From Gemmatimonadota bacterium (GTDB lineage Bacteria > Gemmatimonadota > Gemmatimonadetes > JACCXV01 > JAHWKZ01): a stretch of 64,000 bases of DNA. Below the pieces are notes generated by a model. It did not search any database. It saw only the letters and a list, made by a program, of their open reading frames with translations, and was not told the origin of the DNA. Shown here piece after piece: positions 1 to 60,709 of the stretch (position 1 is the first letter of the stretch; the number at the start of each line of letters is the position of its first letter). The translations under genes were made by a program, and so were the position numbers. The DNA lies in the NCBI GenBank assembly GCA_039588915.1, contig JBDGYV010000009.1:517-64516 (forward strand), written 5' to 3'.

Positions 1-676
1 CCTCCACGACGGCTTCGACCTTGGGGTGGCTGGCGCTTCCCTTGGTCGAGAATGACAGCAGGGCGACCCGTGGCTCCCCACCGGTCAGCGCGTGATGCGT
101 GGCCGCTGAGGCGATGGCGATGTCGGCCAGCTGGTCTGGCGTTGGTTCGGGCACGACACCGCAGTCGCCGAAAGTGAACGCTCCCGCTTCGCCGATCAAA
201 AGGAAAACCGACGAGATCGTCCGGATGCCGGTCGCCGGCCCGATCACGCGGATTGCCGCGCGTACCGTGTCAGCGGTCGTCGATAGGTTCCCTGATACGC
301 ACGCGTCAGCCTCACCGCGCTGGACGAGATAGGCGCCAAACATGAGCGGGTTCTCGAGGGCGGTTCGTGCTTCATCGGTGGTCAGCTCGCGACCGCGGCT
401 CGCCTGCAGGGCCCGGAAGGCGTCGGCATAGGTATCGAGCCGGGGCGATTGCGCCGGTGCTATGGTGGTCGTGCCCTCCAGGCCGACGCCGGCCTTTTCG
501 GCCGCCTCGCGGATCGCGTAGCCGCCACCGAGTAGTGTGACCTCGGCAATGTTGAGCTCGCGAATCGTTTGGGCAGCTTTTACCGCCCGTGGATCGGCGC
601 CGTCGGCGAGCACGATTCGGTGATCGCCGGCTGCCGCCCGGCTTCTCAAGTCCGCGATTACTTGAGCCGGGTTCAC
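1..676 (-). CDS. pta: phosphate acetyltransferase (PTA_PTB family, Pta/EutD type), N-terminal ~225 aa; 3' end runs off the window
   Basis: Not in the ORF track because it is open at the window edge. My own minus-strand translation from GTG at 676 gives [36 protein letters not shown]...[39 protein letters not shown]...[23 protein letters not shown]...[15 protein letters not shown], typical of Pta/EutD. GTGA start/stop overlap with the upstream ORF. Confidence 0.8.
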
Positions 677-1002
677 TGACCCCAACGGGCTAGGACTCGC
701 TCCGCGATCTGACGCACCTGGGTCGCATCCGCTTCTGGCACCAGACCGCGGACGCGTTCGACGACGCGCTCCACATCGCCTGGATTACAGGTCGGTACGT
801 GAAGCTCGGAAACTGGAGAGGTGGGTGATTGTTTGCTCGCTTGGTCGACCAGCTCGATGCCATGGCGGTCAGCTTCTTCCTTGGCCAACGGCGTCACTAT
901 CGCGTGCTCGGGGACGACCAGCTGAATCCCCCCATCACGATGTACCGCGCGCACGTCGTCGGCCGAGACGACGGGCCGGTTTCCACGCCGCTGCACGGTC
1001 AC
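673..1002 (-). CDS. small (109 aa) BMC-locus protein of unknown function; N-terminal [40 protein letters not shown] module, Ser/Pro linker, helical C-terminus ending ...RVLARWGQ
   Basis: This is the 3' part of track ORF 673..1470. I trimmed the start to GTG at 1002, which forms a GTGA overlap with the ParA stop (999-1001). The ORF stop in turn overlaps the pta GTG. The N-terminal motif resembles, from memory only, short modules in hypothetical proteins of eut/pdu-type loci. Confidence 0.55.
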
Positions 1003-1814
1003 GACGCCTGCTTGACGACCGCCTCTTCGCGCCGTGCGGCGAGGCGTTCGGCGATCTCGGCGGCCACGCTGTAATAGGCTGCCGCCCCAGCCGAGTTGGC
1101 GTTGATCTCGAACAGTAGCCGCCCTTCGCGGGCGGCTTCGGCGAGCGCGATGTTGATCGGAATCGGTTCGCGGAACAGCATCTCGCCCCACTTCTCTTCC
1201 ATCGCTGTCACGCATTCCCGACCCACGCGGGTCCGCCGATCGTAAAGCGTCGCCAGATAGCCCAATAACTCCAGCCGCGGATTGAGCCGCCTTCGAACCT
1301 TGTCGATGAGGTCGAGGGTGCGTGGGACAGCGTTCAATGCGAACGGGTGGGTCTGGACGGGGATCACAACGGTGTCGGCCAACCGGAGTGCGTTGACCGT
1401 GTACAGCGACAGCGCCGGCGGAACGTCGATGATCGCCATTCGGTATGGGAGCTCCGGCCCGGCCTCCCAAGCGTCCGCTAAGAGCCCCTCGCGACCCGAG
1501 ACATTGGCTAGCTCGGATTCCATTTGGCCCAAGCTCTCGTGAGCCGGGACACAGAATAGCCGCTCGTAGCGGGTAGGCATCGTCGCGCGTGCCAATCCAC
1601 CGACCGGGTCGATCAACACGTCGGTGACGGTGACGTCGAGGTCGTCCGGGTCGATCCCCAGATGACGGGTCGCTGAAGCTTGGGGGTCGAGGTCGATCAG
1701 GACCGTCTCGATGCCGGTTTCAGCGAAGGCGCCGGCAATGTGGACCGCCGAAGTGGTCTTCCCTACCCCGCCCTTTGCGTTGGCAAACACGAGCGCATAC
1801 GGTCGCCGCATCAT
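999..1814 (-). CDS. ParA/Soj-type deviant Walker A ATPase (271 aa) embedded in the BMC operon
   Basis: The N-terminus ALVFANAKGGVGKTTSAVHIAGAF is a KGGxGKT deviant Walker A with the signature lysine. Also VLIDLDPQASAT, IIDVPPALSLYTVNALRLADTVVIPVQ and the overall Soj/ParA layout. No ParB-like gene is adjacent. The start overlaps the BMC-H stop (TAATG). Confidence 0.9.
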   Translation of the reverse strand: MMRRPYALVFANAKGGVGKTTSAVHIAGAFAETGIETVLIDLDPQASATRHLGIDPDDLDVTVTDVLIDPVGGLARATMPTRYERLFCVPAHESLGQMESELANVSGREGLLADAWEAGPELPYRMAIIDVPPALSLYTVNALRLADTVVIPVQTHPFALNAVPRTLDLIDKVRRRLNPRLELLGYLATLYDRRTRVGRECVTAMEEKWGEMLFREPIPINIALAEAAREGRLLFEINANSAGAAAYYSVAAEIAERLAARREEAVVKQAS

Positions 1815-2404
1815 TAGCTAGCCGGGTAGTAGCGGCTCTCGACCTTTTCTATCGCGCCCCGATCGAGCAGCTGCTTGACGGGACCGATCAGTCGACGCCA
1901 CTCGGTGCCAAGCGCCGCCCCGAGGTCGGGCAGCGATATCCCCTGCTCCCCTGCACGCCGGATCGCCGTCAGACACCGCGCTTCGAGGTCGGTGACCGAC
2001 ACCGGTTGGGTGGCGGGCTTTGTCGTAACCTCGGTTGGCGGAGCTACGGTCGGTTTGGCAGGCGCGGCCGGCTCCGGACTCGGCTTGGAACGCTGTCCGA
2101 TCGGGTACGTCCCGATGGCTGGGCTTTCTGGCAAGACGTCGATCAGCTGGTCGGTGGCTTGATGCGGTCGAGGGATGACATGCACGCTGACCAACTCGCC
2201 GACCTTTGCCGCGGCTACGGCACCTGCATCGGTGGCGGCCTTAACCGCTGCCACGTCGCCCCGGACGAGAATCGTCACCAGGCCGGCTTGTGAATACTCG
2301 CGCTTGACGAATTCGACTGGTGCCGCCTTCGACATCGCGTCGGCGGCTTCTGTGGCACCGACAAAACCGCGGGTCTCGATCAGACCGAGGGCGTTACCGG
2401 CCAT
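1814..2404 (-). CDS. BMC-H shell protein with Pro-rich linker and C-terminal winged-helix/HTH-like domain (EutK-like architecture)
   Basis: Residues 1-85 (MAGNALGLIETRGFVGATEAADAMSKAA...LVTILVRGDVAAVKAATDAG...VHVIPRPH) form a canonical BMC (PduA/EutM-type) domain. A PSPEPAAPAKPTVAPPTEVTTKPATQP linker follows. The last ~60 aa (LEARCLTAIRRAGEQGISLPDLGAALGTEWRRLIGPVKQLLDRGAIEKVESRYY) look like a wHTH. Confidence 0.85.
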   Translation of the reverse strand: MAGNALGLIETRGFVGATEAADAMSKAAPVEFVKREYSQAGLVTILVRGDVAAVKAATDAGAVAAAKVGELVSVHVIPRPHQATDQLIDVLPESPAIGTYPIGQRSKPSPEPAAPAKPTVAPPTEVTTKPATQPVSVTDLEARCLTAIRRAGEQGISLPDLGAALGTEWRRLIGPVKQLLDRGAIEKVESRYYPAS

Positions 2405-2406
2405 CG

Positions 2407-3063
2407 TCAGTACCGCACCGGGTCGGCGTATACCGACGTGACCGCTGCCTCGAACGCTTCACACGCCGCGCGGCAGTCGGCCTCGGTTCCGGTTACCAGT
2501 GCGCCACCCATGTTCGTGGGGGTCGGCGGCTCGATCCACTCTCCCACCCGCACATCAGCTGTCTTGAGCGCCTGATCGAGTCCAAAGACGGCCTCCAGCG
2601 GGGTCGCCTTGAGGTAGCCAAGCGCGTCACCGCGTGCGATACCAGCCCTTTCGGACAGATAGCTACCGGTTTGAGCGACCAAATGCGCCAAATACGGCCA
2701 GCGCCCCTCATCGTCGGCCGACCGGTAGTTGACACGCGACTCGAGGTGAACGATCGTAGCGTCCATTCCTGCTTCGACTTCCCCGATTCGATCGCCGGCC
2801 AATATTACCAGGGTTTCGGAGGTCGGTAGTTCCAAGCTTGACCGCGGGCCGCTGCGGTAGAACGTGCGCGCGAACACGACATCGACCTCGGCCTTCTTGG
2901 TGGCCTCGTCGGCCGCCACGTACGTGGGGTCGTCTTGGTCGACGGTGAGAAACCCGATCGCGGCGTGCGACGGCCTCAGCCCCAGCGCGTCGACCAGCGA
3001 GGGTGCGACGTTTGGGACTGTACGGACCGCTAAAACACGCGGCGCGAGGGTCGTGGTCACCAT
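2407..3063 (-). CDS. BMC-T shell protein, EutL/PduB-type (tandem permuted BMC domains, 218 aa)
   Basis: Collinear with my memory of E. coli EutL: ...GFLTVDQDDPTYVAADEATKKAEVDVVFAR..., ...EVEAGMDATIVHLES..., ...LAHLVAQTGSYLSERAGIARGDALGYLKATPLEAVFGLDQALKTADV..., and a similar length (~219 aa). Confidence 0.85.
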   Translation of the reverse strand: MVTTTLAPRVLAVRTVPNVAPSLVDALGLRPSHAAIGFLTVDQDDPTYVAADEATKKAEVDVVFARTFYRSGPRSSLELPTSETLVILAGDRIGEVEAGMDATIVHLESRVNYRSADDEGRWPYLAHLVAQTGSYLSERAGIARGDALGYLKATPLEAVFGLDQALKTADVRVGEWIEPPTPTNMGGALVTGTEADCRAACEAFEAAVTSVYADPVRY

Positions 3064-3107
3064 GGAGATGGATCCGGGTTCGGGAATTGCCGGGTGAAGC
3101 CCCGGGG

Positions 3108-3136
3108 AGTCTAGGAGCGCGGTCTAGACAGGTCAA
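3108..3136 (-). promoter_or_regulatory. candidate sigma70-like promoter of the BMC operon (TTGACC-N17-TAGACT) with GTCTAGAC palindrome in the spacer
   Basis: The minus strand reads cgcTTGACCtgtctagaccgcgctccTAGACTcccc, ~45 nt upstream of the BMC-T ATG (3063). It lies in the only sizeable non-coding gap (3064-3149) ahead of the operon. Confidence 0.4.
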
Positions 3137-3149
3137 GCGGGCCGAGGGT

Positions 3150-3830
3150 CTAGAAGCGCATCTCGGCGCGGGTCCATTGGACGACTCCGGAGCCGCCGCG
3201 TTGGGCGGGCACGTAGAGCATCTGCTTGGCGGCCGCCAGCGCTAGCGTGTCGAGCAGCGCGAAGCGACTCCCTTTCTCGATCCTGACCTCTCCAACCGAA
3301 CCGTCGGCGAGCACTTCGACCAGGAGGTGAACCGACGCGCCGCGGACCCGCTTCTTGTCGAGGTCATCCGGGATCCTTGGAACGACGAGGTGCAGGGGCC
3401 GCGGCGGACTGACGACCCCACCGCCCCGACCGGCAGCCGGGTCCGTCGTGCCTTCGCCGTCCGGCTCGCCGTCATCGCGACCTTCACCGTCGCTCGGAGC
3501 AGCGTCCGGCTCGGACACCGTCTCCTCGATCGGAGCCTCGGCGATCTCGATTTCGACCACCTCTTCGACCGGCTCGGGATCGGGCTTTGTCTCGGCGACT
3601 TCCTCGGATGGCGGCTGAAGCTCAACTACCTCAAGCTCGCTACCAGGCCCACCCGGGATCACAAACACGTACGGCGACGGAATCAACGCCTCGTGAAGTC
3701 GATCGGCGATCACCCTCGGCAGCGCGAGCAGGATGAACGCGTGGATTCCGATTGCTACCAGCAGGCTCCAGCGCCGGACTCGATCGTACGAATCCCGCCA
3801 TACCGTGTTCTTGCTCGAGAGGACTCGCAT
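3150..3830 (-). CDS. TonB-family energy transducer (226 aa)
   Basis: N-terminal TM helix with conserved His (LLVAIGIHAFILLAL), a Pro/Glu-rich spacer (PPSEEVAETKPDPEPVEEV...), and a C-terminal TonB_C-like fold (VHLLVEVLADGSVGEVRIEKGSRFALLDTLALAAAKQMLYVPA). AGGAG lies ~10 nt upstream of the ATG. Confidence 0.75.
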   Translation of the reverse strand: MRVLSSKNTVWRDSYDRVRRWSLLVAIGIHAFILLALPRVIADRLHEALIPSPYVFVIPGGPGSELEVVELQPPSEEVAETKPDPEPVEEVVEIEIAEAPIEETVSEPDAAPSDGEGRDDGEPDGEGTTDPAAGRGGGVVSPPRPLHLVVPRIPDDLDKKRVRGASVHLLVEVLADGSVGEVRIEKGSRFALLDTLALAAAKQMLYVPAQRGGSGVVQWTRAEMRF

Positions 3831-3860
3831 GAATGAAAAACTCCTGGCGGGTGCGCTGGG

Positions 3861-6341
3861 TTAGACCACTAGGCTCACTAGTTTGTTCGGCACCACGATC
3901 ACCTTGCGAACCTGCTCGCCATCGAGCAGCGCCGGGATTCGCCCATGGGCCAACGCTCGAGCTTCGACCTCCTCGTCCGACAGATCGCGCGGGACGCGCA
4001 TCTCGTCGCGCACCTTCCCGTTGACTTGTATCACGACTGTCACCTCCTCGGTGCGCAGGATCTCGGGGTCATACTCGGGCCATCCTGCGTCGACGACTGG
4101 CGGTTGGTGACCGGTCACGACCCACAGCTCTTCGCTCAAGTGAGGTGCGATAGGCGCCAGGAGTCGGATCATCGTCTCCATCGCAGTTCTCAGCAGTGAC
4201 GCGTCGTCAGGCTCGCGGGTTTCTTCAACCGGGGCGTATTGGTAGCATTCGTTGACGAGCTCCATGATGCGTGCGATAGCGGTGTTGAACTGCCAACTGG
4301 CGAGATCTTCGGTCGCTCCCTTGACGGATCTGTGCAGGACGAGCTGCAGCGATCGCGCGGCTTCCGAGTCAGGAAGCCCCCCATGGCGCTCAGCGCTCTC
4401 ATCCCAAAGGTCCCGATGACGATCGACCAATCGCCACACCCGCTGCAGCCAAGCGGCGATCGCCTTGATCCCCTCGTCTTTCCAATCGCCGCCCTCAGTA
4501 AACGCGAAACCGAACATCAGGTAGGCGCGAAAAGCGTCGGCGCCGTACTCATCGATGTAGTTGTCAGGGCTGATCACGTTGTCCCGGGACTTTGACATCT
4601 TGGTCCCGCGATTGGTGATCGTCCCCTGGTGAACGAGCCGCTGAAATGGCTCGCTGATGTCGAGGTGGCCGAGGTCGCGCATCGCCTTGACCATGAACCG
4701 CGCGTATAACAGGTGCAGGACGGCGTGCTCGATTCCACCCGAGTACTGGTAAATTGGGCACCACCGATCGATCAAGTCTCGGTTCCACGGCCGTTCGTCG
4801 TCGTCGGGTGACAAATAGCGCAGGAAATACCACGCCGAGTCGACGAACGTGTCCATCGTGTCGGGGTCTCGCCGCGCCTCCGAGCCACAGCTCGGGCAAG
4901 CCACGTTCATGAACGCATCCGAACGCTCGAGCGGGCTCTTGCCTGCACCAAGCGAAAAATCCACGTCGTACGGCAGTTCGACCGGCAGATCGTGGACCCC
5001 CACCGGCACCTCCCCGCAGTCGGAGCAATGTACGATCGGGATCGGAGCTCCCCAGTAGCGTTGCCTGGATATGAGCCAGTCACGGAGACGGTAGTGGACG
5101 GTCGCTTTCCCCTGCCCCTTGGCCACGAGGTCGGCCGTAACCTGGTCGAGCATTTCTTCTGATCGCATGCCGGTGTAGGGGCCTGATGCGACGACCGTAC
5201 CGTGACCGGTGTAAGCCTCGTCGCGGCCGATATCGGTCGAGGCGGGTTCAATCACCCACACGATCGGGAGATTCAGCGCCCGGACGAAGTCGAAATCACG
5301 GTCGTCGTGGGCGGGCACACCTTGAATCGCGCCGGTGCCGTAGCTCGCGAGCACGAAATCCGCGACCCAGATCGGTACCGGCTCCCCAGTCAATGGGTGG
5401 AGCGCGTAGGCGCCGGTAAACTCGCCGGTCTTCTCGGCGTCGGTCGATGTGCGCTCGATCTCCGACAGCCGACGGGCACGCTCGCGGTACGCGTCGACCT
5501 GGGCCCGATGCGCATCGGTCACGATGTCATCCAGCGCACTGTGCTCTGGCGCTAGCGCCAGGAAGGTGACGCCGTAGAGCGTGTCCGGACGGGTCGTAAA
5601 CGTCTTGATCGAGGTCTCTCCGTCGCCGACCTGCCAGTCGATCTCGACCCCGATTGAGCGACCGATCCAGTTTCGCTGCAACGTCTTCGTTCGAATCGGC
5701 CAATCGACATGGTCGAGTCCATCCAGCAGTTCATCCGCGTAGTCGGTGATCTTGAAGAACCATTGGGTGAGACCTCGCTTCTCGACCAGCGCGCCACAGC
5801 GCTCGCAGACGTTGCCTTCGAGGACTTGCTCGTTGGCGAGCACCGTTTGGTCGGTCGGGCACCACCAGACGGGTGCCGCCCGCCGGTAGGCCAGCCCGGC
5901 CTTGTAGAGCTCGAGAAAGAGCCACTGAGTCCACTTGTAGTACTCGGGTTGGCTGGTGTTGAGCGTGCGCTCCCAATCCCACATCGCGCCCATCGTCTTG
6001 AGCTGCTCGATCATGTTGACGACGTTGCGATCGGTGGAATCCTTGGGGTGGATTCCGGTCCGCACAGCGTAGTTCTCGGCCGGTAGGCCGAACGCATCAA
6101 AGCCGAACGGCTCGAAGACCGATCGGCCACACATGCGTTGAAACCGGGCCCACGTGTCGGCCGGTCCATAGTGGTACCAGTGGCCGACATGGAGTCGATC
6201 GCCAGAGGGGTAGGCGAACATGACGAGCGCGTAGCAGGGATTTACCGCGGCCTCGAGGTCGGTCCGGAACAGATCCCCGGCTTCCCATTCCGCGCGCCAC
6301 TTCGGCTCGATCGCATGGGGGTCGTAACGATGCTCGGTCAT
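3861..6341 (-). CDS. leuS: leucine--tRNA ligase
   Basis: 826 aa with HIGH-type motif (PSGDRLHVGHWYHY), KMSKS motif (GTKMSKSRDNVISP) and full-length class Ia LeuRS collinearity. Confidence 0.97.
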   Translation of the reverse strand: MTEHRYDPHAIEPKWRAEWEAGDLFRTDLEAAVNPCYALVMFAYPSGDRLHVGHWYHYGPADTWARFQRMCGRSVFEPFGFDAFGLPAENYAVRTGIHPKDSTDRNVVNMIEQLKTMGAMWDWERTLNTSQPEYYKWTQWLFLELYKAGLAYRRAAPVWWCPTDQTVLANEQVLEGNVCERCGALVEKRGLTQWFFKITDYADELLDGLDHVDWPIRTKTLQRNWIGRSIGVEIDWQVGDGETSIKTFTTRPDTLYGVTFLALAPEHSALDDIVTDAHRAQVDAYRERARRLSEIERTSTDAEKTGEFTGAYALHPLTGEPVPIWVADFVLASYGTGAIQGVPAHDDRDFDFVRALNLPIVWVIEPASTDIGRDEAYTGHGTVVASGPYTGMRSEEMLDQVTADLVAKGQGKATVHYRLRDWLISRQRYWGAPIPIVHCSDCGEVPVGVHDLPVELPYDVDFSLGAGKSPLERSDAFMNVACPSCGSEARRDPDTMDTFVDSAWYFLRYLSPDDDERPWNRDLIDRWCPIYQYSGGIEHAVLHLLYARFMVKAMRDLGHLDISEPFQRLVHQGTITNRGTKMSKSRDNVISPDNYIDEYGADAFRAYLMFGFAFTEGGDWKDEGIKAIAAWLQRVWRLVDRHRDLWDESAERHGGLPDSEAARSLQLVLHRSVKGATEDLASWQFNTAIARIMELVNECYQYAPVEETREPDDASLLRTAMETMIRLLAPIAPHLSEELWVVTGHQPPVVDAGWPEYDPEILRTEEVTVVIQVNGKVRDEMRVPRDLSDEEVEARALAHGRIPALLDGEQVRKVIVVPNKLVSLVV

Positions 6342-35302: not shown

Positions 35303-37282
35303 CTAGGCTTCGGCTCCGTCCCCGGCCACGTCCTCCCCGGTTGCGTCGGGGTTGGCTTCAGCGAGCGCTTCCGCCTTTTCGGTAGGTGGTTCCTCGTCAG
35401 ACAGTTCTTCTTCCGGCGCGGCCTCATCAGTTTCGGCGGCCTCATCAGTTTCGGCGGTCTCATCAGTTTCAGCGGCCTCATCGGCGTCGGCTAACTCCTC
35501 TGGTTCGGAGTCGATGTCCGGCCGATCGCGGTGACTGGGGATATCGATCACCGACAGAACGATCCGGCGGTTATCCGGATCCGACTCGATGACCTTGAGA
35601 ACCATGAGGTCACCTTCGCGGAACTTGTCGGATGGGTTCTCGAGATTCCGATAGCCGAGTTGTGATATCGGAACGAAACCTTCCACCTCGCCATCGAGAT
35701 CGACCACGACCCCCTTGTCGAGCAGGCGCAGTAATTTGGCGTCGGTTTCGACTCCCACCGCGTACTTATCACCGAGCCCCGGCCACGGGTTCTCCTCGAG
35801 ATCCTTGATGCTCAGGGAGATCCGTTTGTTCTCCGCGTCGATGTTGAGAACCTGAACCTTCACGGTTTCGCCCTTGCGAACGACCTCGCTCGGATGGTGA
35901 ATTCGCCGCGTCCAAGACATGTCGCTGATGTGTACCAAGCCGTCGATCCCCTCTTCGATTTCGACGAATGCACCAAAAGTGGTCAGGTTCCGGACCGTCC
36001 CGTTCAAGATCGTGCCATCCGGATATTTCTCCGCCAGGCCGTTCCAAGGATCTTCCTCGATTTGCTTCATCCCGAGGGAGATCTTCTCTTCTTCCTGGTT
36101 CACGTTGAGCACGACGGCCTCGATAACGTCTCCGATTGAGACGACTTTGGAGGGATGCTTGATGTGACGAGTCCACGACATCTCCGATATGTGGACCAGC
36201 CCTTCAACCCCCTTCTCGAGCTCGACAAAGGCGCCATAGTTCGTGATTGACACCACTTTGCCATTGATGCGGGTGTTTACCGGGAACTTCTCGGCGACAC
36301 CCTCCCACGGATACGGCTGTAGTTGTTTGAGGCCCAGAGAGATTCGGTTGTTCTCCAAATCGAGGTCGAGAATCTTCACCTCGAGCTCATCGCCTATCGA
36401 TACGAGCTCGGATGGATGACCCACCCGGCCCCATGACATATCGGTGATATGCAGCAGGCCGTCGGCACCGCCCAGGTCGATAAATGCGCCGAAATCGGTG
36501 ATGTTCTTGACGATGCCTGTGCGTAGCTGGCCAACGGCTATCTCGGTTAGGAGCCGGCCTCGTTTCTGCTCTCTGATCTGCTCGAGGATGGTTCGCCGGC
36601 TCACGACGATGTTTCGACGCCGCTTGTTCAGCTTGATGATCTTGAACTCCATCGTCTGTCCGATGAGGGCATCAATGTCGGGAACGCGACGGAGCGCGAT
36701 CTGAGACCCCGGTAGAAAGGCGTCTACTCCAAACAGATCGACGATTACTCCGCCCTTGATCTTTCTGGCGAGCGTGCCCTGGACGAGCGTGCCATCATCG
36801 TAGGCGAGCCGAATCTTGTCCCAAACCTTGAAGAAGTCGGCTTTCTTCTTCGATAGGACGACGCGGCCCTCTTTATCCTCCAGGTTCTCGAGGAAAACGT
36901 CCACCTCGGCTCCGACATCCATCGGATCTGTATCCTTGAACTCATCGAGCGAAACCGCTCCCTCGCTCTTAAACCCGACGTCGAGAACAACGATGTTCTC
37001 GTCCACGCGCAGAATGTGCCCGGTGACGATCTGGCCCTCCTTGATGTCCTGGATCGATTCCTCATAGATGCCAAGGAGTTCCTGGTACTCATCGAGCGAG
37101 TACTCATCTTCGTCGAAAAGATCAGGACGAATGTTCAGCTGTTCGGCGGTGGGTTTTGGGTCTTCTGGGACCAACTCGTTGGCAGAAACGCGCAGTGGCG
37201 CCTCGGCAGGCTCGCGAGGATCAACGGCGACGCCGCTAGATTCGGGGCCACCTCCGGGGGAGGTGTCGGTTGGGTCAATCAT
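35303..37282 (-). CDS. rpsA: 30S ribosomal protein S1 (six S1 domains) with acidic repeat tail
   Basis: Repeated S1 motifs (GQIVTGHILRV..., VDAFLPGSQI..., GLLHITDMSW..., GLVHISEMSW..., GLVHISDMSW...). The track start at 37288 is TTG, and ATG at 37282 (MIDPTD) is more likely. Conserved cmk-rpsA adjacency. Confidence 0.93.
   Translation of the reverse strand: MIDPTDTSPGGGPESSGVAVDPREPAEAPLRVSANELVPEDPKPTAEQLNIRPDLFDEDEYSLDEYQELLGIYEESIQDIKEGQIVTGHILRVDENIVVLDVGFKSEGAVSLDEFKDTDPMDVGAEVDVFLENLEDKEGRVVLSKKKADFFKVWDKIRLAYDDGTLVQGTLARKIKGGVIVDLFGVDAFLPGSQIALRRVPDIDALIGQTMEFKIIKLNKRRRNIVVSRRTILEQIREQKRGRLLTEIAVGQLRTGIVKNITDFGAFIDLGGADGLLHITDMSWGRVGHPSELVSIGDELEVKILDLDLENNRISLGLKQLQPYPWEGVAEKFPVNTRINGKVVSITNYGAFVELEKGVEGLVHISEMSWTRHIKHPSKVVSIGDVIEAVVLNVNQEEEKISLGMKQIEEDPWNGLAEKYPDGTILNGTVRNLTTFGAFVEIEEGIDGLVHISDMSWTRRIHHPSEVVRKGETVKVQVLNIDAENKRISLSIKDLEENPWPGLGDKYAVGVETDAKLLRLLDKGVVVDLDGEVEGFVPISQLGYRNLENPSDKFREGDLMVLKVIESDPDNRRIVLSVIDIPSHRDRPDIDSEPEELADADEAAETDETAETDEAAETDEAAPEEELSDEEPPTEKAEALAEANPDATGEDVAGDGAEA
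35421..35490. repeat. 18-bp tandem repeat (about 3.5 copies) encoding (A/T)AETDE units in the S1 C-terminal tail
   Basis: gcctcatcagtttcggcg occurs at 35421 and 35439 (identical), at 35457 with 2 mismatches, and as a degenerate copy at 35475. It is in frame and gives AAETDETAETDEAAETDEAAPEEE. Confidence 0.85.
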
Positions 37283-52330: not shown

Positions 52331-53068
52331 ATGTCGAAGCGCCTGAAAGGTGTGCTCCACTACGACGGTACCAGCTATCGCGGCTGGCAGAGGCAGGCCG
52401 ACGCGGAGACGGTGCAGGGAGTCTGCGAGCGCTCGCTCGAAAAGATCTTCGGAGAACCCGTATCGTTGGTCGCCTCGGGTCGCACCGATACCGGCGTTCA
52501 CGCCCGTGGCCAAGTGGTTCACTTCGAACACGAGACAACGATCGAGAATCGCGAGTTGATGCGCGCCTGGAACACACAGCTACCTGACGATGTATGGGTT
52601 GAGCGGTTGACGACCGCTTCGGCACGCTTCCATGCCCGGCACGATGCGGTGAGCCGTACGTATCGGTATTTCATCGCCGACGGGCGACTCGCACACTCAC
52701 CGTTTGTGTGCCGTTACACGTGGCCGCTTGATCGCCGCCTCGATTGGGACGCGGTCCACGAGGCGACATCCTCGATTAGCGGGGCGCATGACTTTCGGCA
52801 CTTCGCCAAGGGAATATCAGAGGGCCCGTGTTCTGTGTACTCCGCTGAATGGCACCGTACCCGGAACGGGCACGCGTTGGAAATCACCGCTAATCGCTTC
52901 TTACGTCACATGGTGCGCGCCCTCGTTGGGGCGCTCGTTTCCATAGGGCGCGGACAGGTCCACCCATCGTCGTTGCCCCGAGCGCTTCAACCGCGTGGCG
53001 AGCCCGTTTCGGCGGCCCACGCACCCCCACAAGGACTCTTCCTTTGGAAGGTTCAGTATGCGCGCTGA
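52331..53068 (+). CDS. truA: tRNA pseudouridine(38-40) synthase
   Basis: MSKRLKGVLHYDGTSYRGWQRQ..., ASGRTDTGVHARGQVVHF..., FLRHMVRALVGALV. Confidence 0.92.
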   Translation: MSKRLKGVLHYDGTSYRGWQRQADAETVQGVCERSLEKIFGEPVSLVASGRTDTGVHARGQVVHFEHETTIENRELMRAWNTQLPDDVWVERLTTASARFHARHDAVSRTYRYFIADGRLAHSPFVCRYTWPLDRRLDWDAVHEATSSISGAHDFRHFAKGISEGPCSVYSAEWHRTRNGHALEITANRFLRHMVRALVGALVSIGRGQVHPSSLPRALQPRGEPVSAAHAPPQGLFLWKVQYAR

Positions 53069-60536: not shown

Positions 60537-60709
60537 CGTTCTGCCGGGGGTGACTCCGGTTCTACAATCTCGACGCCGTTCTCGATCGTCTGTGGTTTGT
60601 TGTCGCCCCCCCGCAATAGATGGTCCACGTACAACACGGTCGCTAGTGCGATGACCAGCGCCACCAACGCCAGCGCCCAGCGGCTCGGACGGTCACCCAA
60701 CGCTCTCAC
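60533..60709 (-). CDS. possible small membrane-anchored protein (58 aa from GTG 60709)
   Basis: RPSRWALALVALVIALATVLYV looks like a TM helix followed by a short polar tail. The track ORF runs to 60802 and overlaps the upstream gene. Existence is uncertain. Confidence 0.3.
   Translation of the reverse strand: MRALGDRPSRWALALVALVIALATVLYVDHLLRGGDNKPQTIENGVEIVEPESPPAER

Follow-up and report, generated by a model that had tools for sequence, protein, structure and literature searches.

A ParA-type ATPase encoded within a Eut-like microcompartment operon of Gemmatimonadota, a candidate for metabolosome positioning

Among systems that space bacterial microcompartments (BMCs), McdAB has been proven for carboxysomes only; in catabolic BMCs, the extended shell proteins EutK and PduK affect the distribution of their compartments. 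We examined a locus that bears on the spacing and inheritance of catabolic BMCs in a 64,000-nucleotide stretch of DNA from a Gemmatimonadota bacterium (GenBank assembly GCA_039588915.1, contig JBDGYV010000009.1), referred to below as the window. Here a gene for a ParA-type ATPase, hereafter ParA, lies inside an operon for BMC shell proteins, and an earlier note on this DNA had singled it out as a candidate for metabolosome positioning. Does this ATPase serve the compartment beside which it is encoded, and which shell-side protein might it engage? With somewhat better than even confidence, we propose that ParA may be a dedicated microcompartment-positioning ATPase of a Eut-derived metabolosome, with an EutK-like shell protein as its possible adaptor. 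A positioning role is the best reading of the locus because linkage of the gene to the BMC operon is conserved and the gene is under strong purifying selection.

A Soj-like ATPase gene within a Eut-like operon

The proteins of the window were mapped onto the neighbourhoods of 20 GTDB species representatives and 3 long contigs. At all 23 genome or contig loci we found, in one and the same order, genes for an EutL-like BMC-T, an extended BMC-H, ParA, a small open reading frame (ORF), a Pta/EutD, a short EutM-like BMC-H and an EutE-like aldehyde dehydrogenase (AldDH), and at none of these orthologous loci was parB a neighbour. An independent metagenome scan, seeded with the C-terminal domain of the extended shell protein alone, recovered 21 more loci, for which about 18 contigs were informative. 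ParA lies directly downstream of the extended BMC-H in these loci wherever the contig continues, with a single exception. In that locus (L038, 354-2044), the sole case of an extended BMC-H without ParA after it, no convincing ORF is present in the roughly 1.1 kb downstream; this 2-kb contig may be a chimeric or broken assembly, or it may be a genuine variant without ParA.

Conservation of the neighbourhood was the check that the earlier note had set for its own proposal, with orthologues beside parB or oriC as the adverse outcome. The proposal passed this check: every orthologue recovered lies between the extended BMC-H and the small ORF or pta, and never next to parB/oriC genes. The note had also reported neither ParB nor centromere-like repeats, and we agree: neither a ParB box nor a second ParA was found in the 64-kb window, nor any parS site with fewer than 3 mismatches, and there is no repeat array at positions 1-4000. 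When 3 mismatches were allowed, the parS consensus had four matches in the window, one of them palindromic, where chance would give 0.76. Such sites at 36096-36111, 52515-52530 and 60621-60636 are distant from the ParA gene and too degenerate to be called parS.

ParA, with the N-terminus MMRRPYALVFANAKGGVGKTT, is a full-length Soj/ParA protein with a deviant Walker A motif, as had been claimed, and its KGGVGKT is the sole motif of this kind in the window. The motif is invariant across 24 aligned orthologues and is kept in the 69 clade members and 44 generic ParAs that were compared. Walker A' (DLDPQ) is at residues 41-45 and Walker B (IIDVPP) at residues 127-133, and D41, D43, P44, Q45, D130, P132 and P133 are conserved both in the clade and in the generic ParAs; the same is true of R194, the equivalent of R189 in Bacillus subtilis Soj. 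The closest solved structures, which align over residues 7-258, are the ParA 8RAY (134.6 bits) and T. thermophilus Soj 1WCV (129 bits), and further full-length matches were obtained with M. smegmatis 4PFS (126 bits) and H. pylori Soj (102 bits). Scores for other branches were 50 bits for beta-McdA, 40 for ParF and 31-34 for MinD, and BcsQ, CooC and Mrp appeared as weak NCBIfam matches. A C-terminal membrane helix of the MinD type was not found in ParA, and the tails of its orthologues are variable and charged.

A database search returned about 76 clusters at 60-91% identity to ParA, and every named member is a metagenome-assembled genome (MAG) of Gemmatimonadota. Below this group, identity falls abruptly to the 41-45% seen with generic ParAs of many phyla; judged by these identities, ParA forms a discrete Gemmatimonadota clade. 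The nearest ParA outside the clade (P0083) is an orphan gene without parB, and its context is uninformative. The ratio of nonsynonymous to synonymous substitution rates (dN/dS) for ParA is 0.06-0.09 among close relatives; no other gene of the locus has so low a value, the ratio for LeuRS is equal or higher, and by this measure the gene is under strong purifying selection. Across the clade, ParA identity ranges from 69 to 98% and LeuRS identity from 70 to 95%; since the divergence of ParA parallels that of LeuRS, the data are consistent with vertical inheritance of ParA together with the locus. Comparison of the 69 clade members with the 44 generic ParAs revealed motif swaps specific to the clade, from NQKGG to NAKGG and from QCEYYAL to QTHPFAL (each in 99-100% of members), together with a change of LSQL to VPRT. 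The clade-specific substitutions cluster in residues 131-166 and 220-232, a pattern which suggests that the partner and matrix (DNA-binding) surfaces of ParA have been remodelled.

The genes form a tightly packed block on the minus strand that spans positions 1-3063 (Table 1). The stop codon of the extended BMC-H gene (TAA, 1816-1814) and the ATG of ParA (1814-1812) share one base, giving TAATG at 1812-1816, and the TGA of ParA (1001-999) overlaps the GTG (1002-1000) of a 109-amino-acid (aa) ORF, giving GTGA at 999-1002. Both overlaps had been described correctly and can be read directly in the sequence. The 109-aa ORF in turn overlaps pta through another GTGA at 673-676. ParA had been placed between a shell gene and pta; the BMC-H does adjoin it on one side, but on the other the 109-aa ORF intervenes and pta is one gene further. 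Strict codon overlaps are kept in close relatives only, and in distant orthologues the gap from BMC-H to ParA is 3-18 nt and that from ParA to the small ORF is -4 to +34 nt. Because the gaps vary in this way, it is the tight packing of the operon that is conserved, not the exact coupling.

Table 1. Features of the BMC operon in the window
Feature	Position	Strand	Evidence
EutL-like BMC-T, 218 aa; opens the conserved block	2407..3063	-	NCBIfam EutL PRK15405, 241 bits (cutoff 198)
EutK-like shell protein, 196 aa (BMC-H, linker and winged-helix C-domain)	1814..2404	-	PF00936, 9.8e-25
C-terminal 66 aa of the shell protein (winged-helix module; final residues KVESRYYPAS)	1817..2014	-	AlphaFold2 (AF2), Foldseek, hhalign
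ParA/Soj-type deviant Walker A ATPase, 271 aa	999..1814	-	Pfam AAA_31 2.3e-38, CbiA 1.2e-19
Deviant Walker A KGGVGKT (ParA residues 14-20; signature Lys14, Lys19)	1755..1775	-	
EutQ N-terminal-domain homologue, 109 aa, GTG start	673..1002	-	NCBIfam EutQ PRK15457, positions 4-98, E 1e-7
Pta/EutD-type phosphotransacetylase (225 N-terminal aa, the rest lying beyond the window start)	2..676	-	PF01515, 1.1e-59

Identity to the E. coli Eut proteins is 42% for EutL, 42% for EutD, 76% for EutM and 55% for EutE, and by sequence the host compartment is a Eut-derived, Eut-like aldehyde-oxidising metabolosome. In E. coli the eut genes run P-Q-T-D-M-N-E-...-L-K, and eutP overlaps eutQ, the gene directly after it. 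The order of the present locus, L-K-(ParA)-Q'-D-M-E, becomes colinear with that of the enterobacterial operon if eutLK is moved to the front of the latter, and ParA occupies the slot of EutP because it adjoins the EutQ-N-like ORF as eutP adjoins eutQ. Genes for ethanolamine ammonia-lyase (EutBC), EutA, EutT, EutN and EutS were found neither in the window nor in the loci of relatives; a probe with the E. coli EutN sequence also failed to detect a shell pentamer gene in either. Extension of the search to the 8-10 kb flanks of the relatives yielded neither a signature enzyme nor a pentamer gene. RuBisCO, CsoS2 and Ccm genes are absent from the locus, and an Rfam scan of the window found no riboswitch or other RNA that would hint at the substrate. 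The complete BMC-Tsp tree of the 2021 catalogue has no Gemmatimonadetes entry, and therefore this locus type is probably uncatalogued.

Outside the BMC block, a gene at 3150-3830 on the same strand, situated between LeuRS and the block, encodes a TonB_C-domain protein of 226 aa with an acidic Pro/Glu-rich middle. This gene was detected in most related loci (L001-L016) and was not detected in L017-L023.

The two proteins encoded on either side of ParA

The shell protein encoded directly upstream of ParA consists of a BMC-H domain (aa 5-80), a variable linker rich in Pro, Lys and Arg (about aa 92-137) and a C-terminal domain (C-domain) of about 58 aa, which is invariant in the alignment of 24 orthologues and there ends KVESRYYPAG. 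In BLASTP the protein is 32% identical to E. coli EutK over residues 4-192 (E 6e-25). AF2 modelled the C-domain as a winged helix of HHH-beta-beta topology with a predicted local distance difference test score (pLDDT) of 90.6, and Foldseek matched the model to the winged helices of Z-alpha, MarR, CymR, IclR and ScpB (TMq 0.7-0.84). The C-domain is colinear with that of E. coli EutK down to a common terminal SRY motif. The Smith-Waterman score between the two is 55, versus 22.7 ± 4.5 for shuffled sequences (z about 7; none of 2000 shuffles reached 55), and hhalign gave an E value of 1.8e-4 at a probability of 49%. On these two alignments, the label "EutK-like" is moderately supported. Pfam EutK_C had no match in the C-domain, and the EutK structure 3I71 was absent from the top 50 Foldseek matches. 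A database search with the 66-aa C-domain returned 5 short fragments only and gave no view of other architectures, and profile searches of both small domains against PDB sequences produced matches at chance level.

We also compared the divergence of individual domains with that of ParA in 21 loci, using partial Mantel tests in which the locus background was controlled. For the winged helix the correlation was r 0.54 (p 0.0002), a value that we treat as a lead and not as proof because the test is liberal under common descent. The corresponding values were 0.18 for the BMC domain, -0.04 for the N-domain of the small ORF and 0.18 (p 0.02) for its C-terminal helices.

Homologues of the winged-helix module were also seen in a low-GC gas-vesicle cluster (L041, 1630-2802; Ga0208045_1001248) that has genes for a GvpN-like AAA_5 protein, GvpL/F, GvpO and Hsp20. 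Two adjacent ORFs of this cluster end in the module (...GVEWRRLIRPAKELVEAGLVAKKETQYFPS and ...GVEWRTLIRPAKEILEVGNVQKKDTNYYPAS), and one of them, a protein of 313 aa with three repeats of about 18 aa, may be GvpC-like. Since L041 and the BMC locus both carry it, the module occurs in gene clusters of two different protein-shelled organelles.

The 109-aa ORF downstream of ParA, named in the earlier note as a protein to test for interaction, is not an anonymous partner: the protein is a homologue of the N-terminal shell-cargo linker of EutQ. A profile built from 31 orthologues aligned end to end (positions 4-100) with residues 3-100 of E. coli EutQ at 32.4 bits, and the pairwise Smith-Waterman score against EutQ was 86, versus 29 ± 5 for shuffles. 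The AF2 model has a confident small alpha/beta N-domain (pLDDT above 90 at residues 11-53), a disordered linker and two C-terminal helices, a layout that mirrors the H1/H2, flexible and H3/H4 segments of EutQ 1-99; a Foldseek search with the model returned nothing meaningful. The cupin domain of EutQ is absent, the protein stopping at residue 109, and it is thus a homologue of the EutQ domain and not an EutQ orthologue. In Salmonella, EutQ 1-99 is a shell-cargo linker whose H1/H2 bind the EutM/EutL interface and whose H3/H4 bind encapsulation peptides (PMC12487888). The AldDH of the present locus has at its N-terminus an amphipathic helix of the kind usual in encapsulation peptides. An assignment to McdB, prompted by the terminal ARWGQ, was considered and rejected, as most of the 31 aligned orthologues end in ERLGG. 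Because ARWGQ is not conserved and the AldDH has such a helix, the 109-aa protein is best read as a probable stand-alone EutQ-N shell-cargo linker, likely lumenal.

Some variants of this small protein came to light. An exhaustive HMMER search with the 109-aa sequence found 9 representatives, several of them frameshift fusions. In one close relative (L006, 6309-7487), the EutQ-N-like ORF and Pta are joined in frame as a single ORF of at least 393 aa, a short deletion having taken the last helix of the former and the initial residues of the latter; the joined ORF may be a natural fusion of linker and cargo, or it may have arisen in assembly. Frameshifted fusions of a similar kind are P0168 and P0169. 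A protein of 163 aa from another lineage (P0170) has an encapsulation-peptide-like N-terminus (MDLELIRRVVEEEVRRAV) followed by two copies resembling EutQ-N H1/H2, and with two copies in one protein the H1/H2 module appears to be a portable shell-binding unit.

How ParA may act, and the alternatives

If it works as McdA and other ParA systems do, ParA would form ATP-bound dimers that cover a matrix within the cell, probably the nucleoid. ATP hydrolysis would be stimulated locally by a partner on the exterior of the microcompartment, and the zones thereby depleted of ParA would keep compartments apart, mobile and evenly inherited. The shell-side partner would most likely be the EutK-like BMC-H encoded directly upstream. 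In solved shells the termini of BMC-H proteins are reported by Sutter et al. in 2017 to lie on the concave face and point outward, and because of this orientation the flexible basic linker and winged helix of the shell protein should project into the cytosol. We favour the EutK-like protein as partner because of the outward termini, the phenotypes of eutK and pduK, and the co-divergence of the winged helix with ParA. The more specific proposal that it is a shell-integrated adaptor, which displays its linker and winged helix, engages ParA and possibly DNA, and so serves as the equivalent of ParB in place of a soluble McdB-like protein, is a tentative one that we put forward with considerable doubt.

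Several observations weigh against a positioning ATPase with a EutK-like adaptor. Classical ParA partners are encoded downstream of the ATPase, not upstream. The charge of the winged-helix domain is near neutral, and the Mantel test linking it to ParA is prone to false positives when sequences share descent. The winged helix can also act without a ParA encoded in cis, given that there is none in the 6.5 kb of the gas-vesicle cluster L041. Members of the ParA clade are uncultured MAGs throughout. In 99% of the 69 members, the Soj motif PRNVRLxEAPS has become P(I/T/V)N(I/V)ALAEAAR; in the window protein the altered site reads IPINIA (residues 218-223, window 1146-1163). The equivalent of B. subtilis Soj R218 is Ala in 99% of the clade and that of R215 is I, T or V, and arginines R229 and R232 are newly present near the altered motif. 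R189 and R218 are surface arginines of B. subtilis Soj for non-specific DNA binding, and a contribution of R218 to such binding was reportedly found by Hester and Lutkenhaus in 2007. Since the R218 equivalent is lost, nucleoid binding by ParA is plausible but not assured. The positioning proposal of the earlier note gains from conserved linkage and purifying selection, but attachment to the nucleoid may not be assumed with it. Finally, EutK operates in Salmonella, where host ParA and MinD leave the placement of Pdu BMCs unaffected (PMC12866334).

If ParA positions the compartment, its partner could instead be the downstream 109-aa protein, which would work in the manner of McdB, with its N-terminus stimulating ParA and its EutQ-like domain binding the shell. 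The ORF is in the canonical place for a ParA partner, downstream and with a GTGA overlap, and its product carries near the N-terminus an arginine that never varies (R9 in the window protein, MSRP in most orthologues), with more basic residues after it, as well as a disordered central linker. In Salmonella, the EutQ N-domain attaches to the shell at the EutM/EutL interface through its helices H1/H2 (PMC12487888). The window's own subclade even has a Trp at -3 (in ARWGQ), but this C-terminal aromatic is not conserved, and whereas the C-terminal helices co-vary weakly with ParA, the N-domain does not. The protein is also mostly folded, unlike the disordered McdB proteins, it aligns with EutQ from end to end, and the AldDH of the locus offers an encapsulation-peptide-like helix for it to bind. 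The EutQ region is encapsulated in Salmonella, where it bridges the encapsulation peptides of cargo to the inner shell, and by this comparison a ParA in the cytosol would have no access to the 109-aa protein. Therefore, it seems decidedly unlikely that this protein is the partner.

We also think it unlikely that the ATPase serves the compartment without matrix-based positioning, either as an ATP-dependent assembly or scaffolding factor for shell and cargo or as a stand-in for EutP, although its location directly upstream of the EutQ-like gene, the loss of the arginine pair of PRNVRL and the gathering of clade-specific substitutions in residues 131-166, suggestive of new contacts, would all fit such a role. 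Its ParA/MinD relatives do include the non-positioning ATPases BcsQ, CooC and Mrp. However, full-length similarity is highest to the Soj/ParA segregation ATPases (125-135 bits, versus 31-50 for the remaining branches, MinD included), both the signature lysine and the Soj R189 equivalent are retained, and the metal-binding CXC motif of the CooC/Mrp type is absent from the ParA sequence. Salmonella EutP is dispensable and cytosolic, and so provides no positive model. That ParA is an ordinary chromosome- or plasmid-partition protein lying next to shell genes by chance is highly improbable. Its closest solved relatives are chromosomal Soj/ParA proteins and members of the clade are annotated at source as 'chromosome partitioning protein', but the gene is embedded in the BMC operon at every orthologous locus (at least 20 species), it comes without parB or parS in the 64-kb window, its clade is set apart from generic ParAs, and the neighbours of the BMC block are the chromosomal housekeeping genes for LeuRS and DapF.

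Relation to known systems and significance

The earlier note had presented the locus as an undescribed system, which is not tenable. In 2014 Axen et al. already counted ParA (PF01656) among the ancillary families of BMC loci (PMC4207490), and MacCready et al. reported in 2021 McdA/B-like genes in four non-carboxysome BMC loci (PMC8359340). According to a 2021 mBio review, putative McdA/B-like proteins are encoded in several non-carboxysome BMC operons (PMC8262871); a 2025 review repeated that such genes are present in BMC operons and urged direct studies (PMC13052382), and the statement recurs in 2026 (PMC12866334). The concept of a ParA-positioned metabolosome is therefore already published (2014, 2021) as a proposal. 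What we did not find described, and take to be new, is the Gemmatimonadota ParA clade with its Soj-like sequence, the Eut-like host locus, the trio of EutK-like, ParA and EutQ-N-like genes, and the absence of an McdB-like protein.

McdA is the precedent for a BMC-positioning ParA (PMC8359340), and the present ATPase resembles the McdAB system in that it is encoded inside a BMC operon beside shell genes and has the signature lysine found in alpha-McdA (the alpha system is that of Halothiobacillus neapolitanus, the beta system that of cyanobacteria) and in the beta type 2 protein; an ATPase gradient with a cargo-bound stimulator would be expected here as well. It differs in that the cargo is a Eut-like metabolosome and not a carboxysome, and in that the downstream gene encodes a folded homologue of the EutQ N-domain in which no C-terminal Trp/Tyr is invariant. 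Of the McdA proteins, the comparison covered beta-McdA (6NON/6NOO), which matched the N-terminal part only (query residues 7-175), whereas Soj reached about 130 bits. The Soj/ParA proteins (1WCV/2BEK, 8RAY, 6IUB) are the best relatives over the full length, and Walker A, A' and B and the R189 equivalent are kept, but the present clade lacks ParB/parS, has three altered motifs and is always found in the context of a BMC operon.

Among the Eut and Pdu proteins, EutK is like the upstream gene product in having a BMC-H domain, a linker and a small C-domain of the helix-turn-helix type; the shell gene here is coupled to ParA, whereas enterobacterial eut operons have no ParA. When eutK is deleted in Salmonella, the Eut BMCs are static and sit at the poles, and a ParB-like role for EutK was raised by the authors as speculation (PMC12487888). 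PduK plays a similar role in the distribution of Pdu BMCs (PMC13052382), and for PduV, a member of the PduV/EutP family, a part in BMC positioning has been suggested (PMC8262871), which together with the EutP slot of ParA speaks for the positioning reading. A 2026 paper found Salmonella Pdu BMCs to be unaffected by (heterologous) McdAB, host ParA and MinD (PMC12866334). EutP/PduV and ParA are both P-loop NTPases and hold the same operon position, but EutP/PduV is Ras-like (PF10662) and bears no sequence relationship to the ParA/MinD family. Going by gene order, ParA may be a non-homologous replacement of EutP.

The clade offers a compact three-gene module (EutK-like, ParA and EutQ-N-like) within a seven-gene Eut-like operon that is amenable to synthesis and reconstitution. 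If a positioning function is not confirmed, the locus would be a tidy example of an item already noted in surveys of BMC loci; if it is confirmed, the module could serve as a portable spacing device for engineered microcompartments. Should the EutK-like protein prove to be a shell-integrated adaptor, catabolic metabolosomes would have their first defined positioning system, and the winged-helix module on the gas-vesicle proteins would mark a general handle of protein-shelled organelles. Such an adaptor would also explain mechanistically how extended shell proteins of the EutK/PduK type control the distribution of BMCs in enterobacteria.

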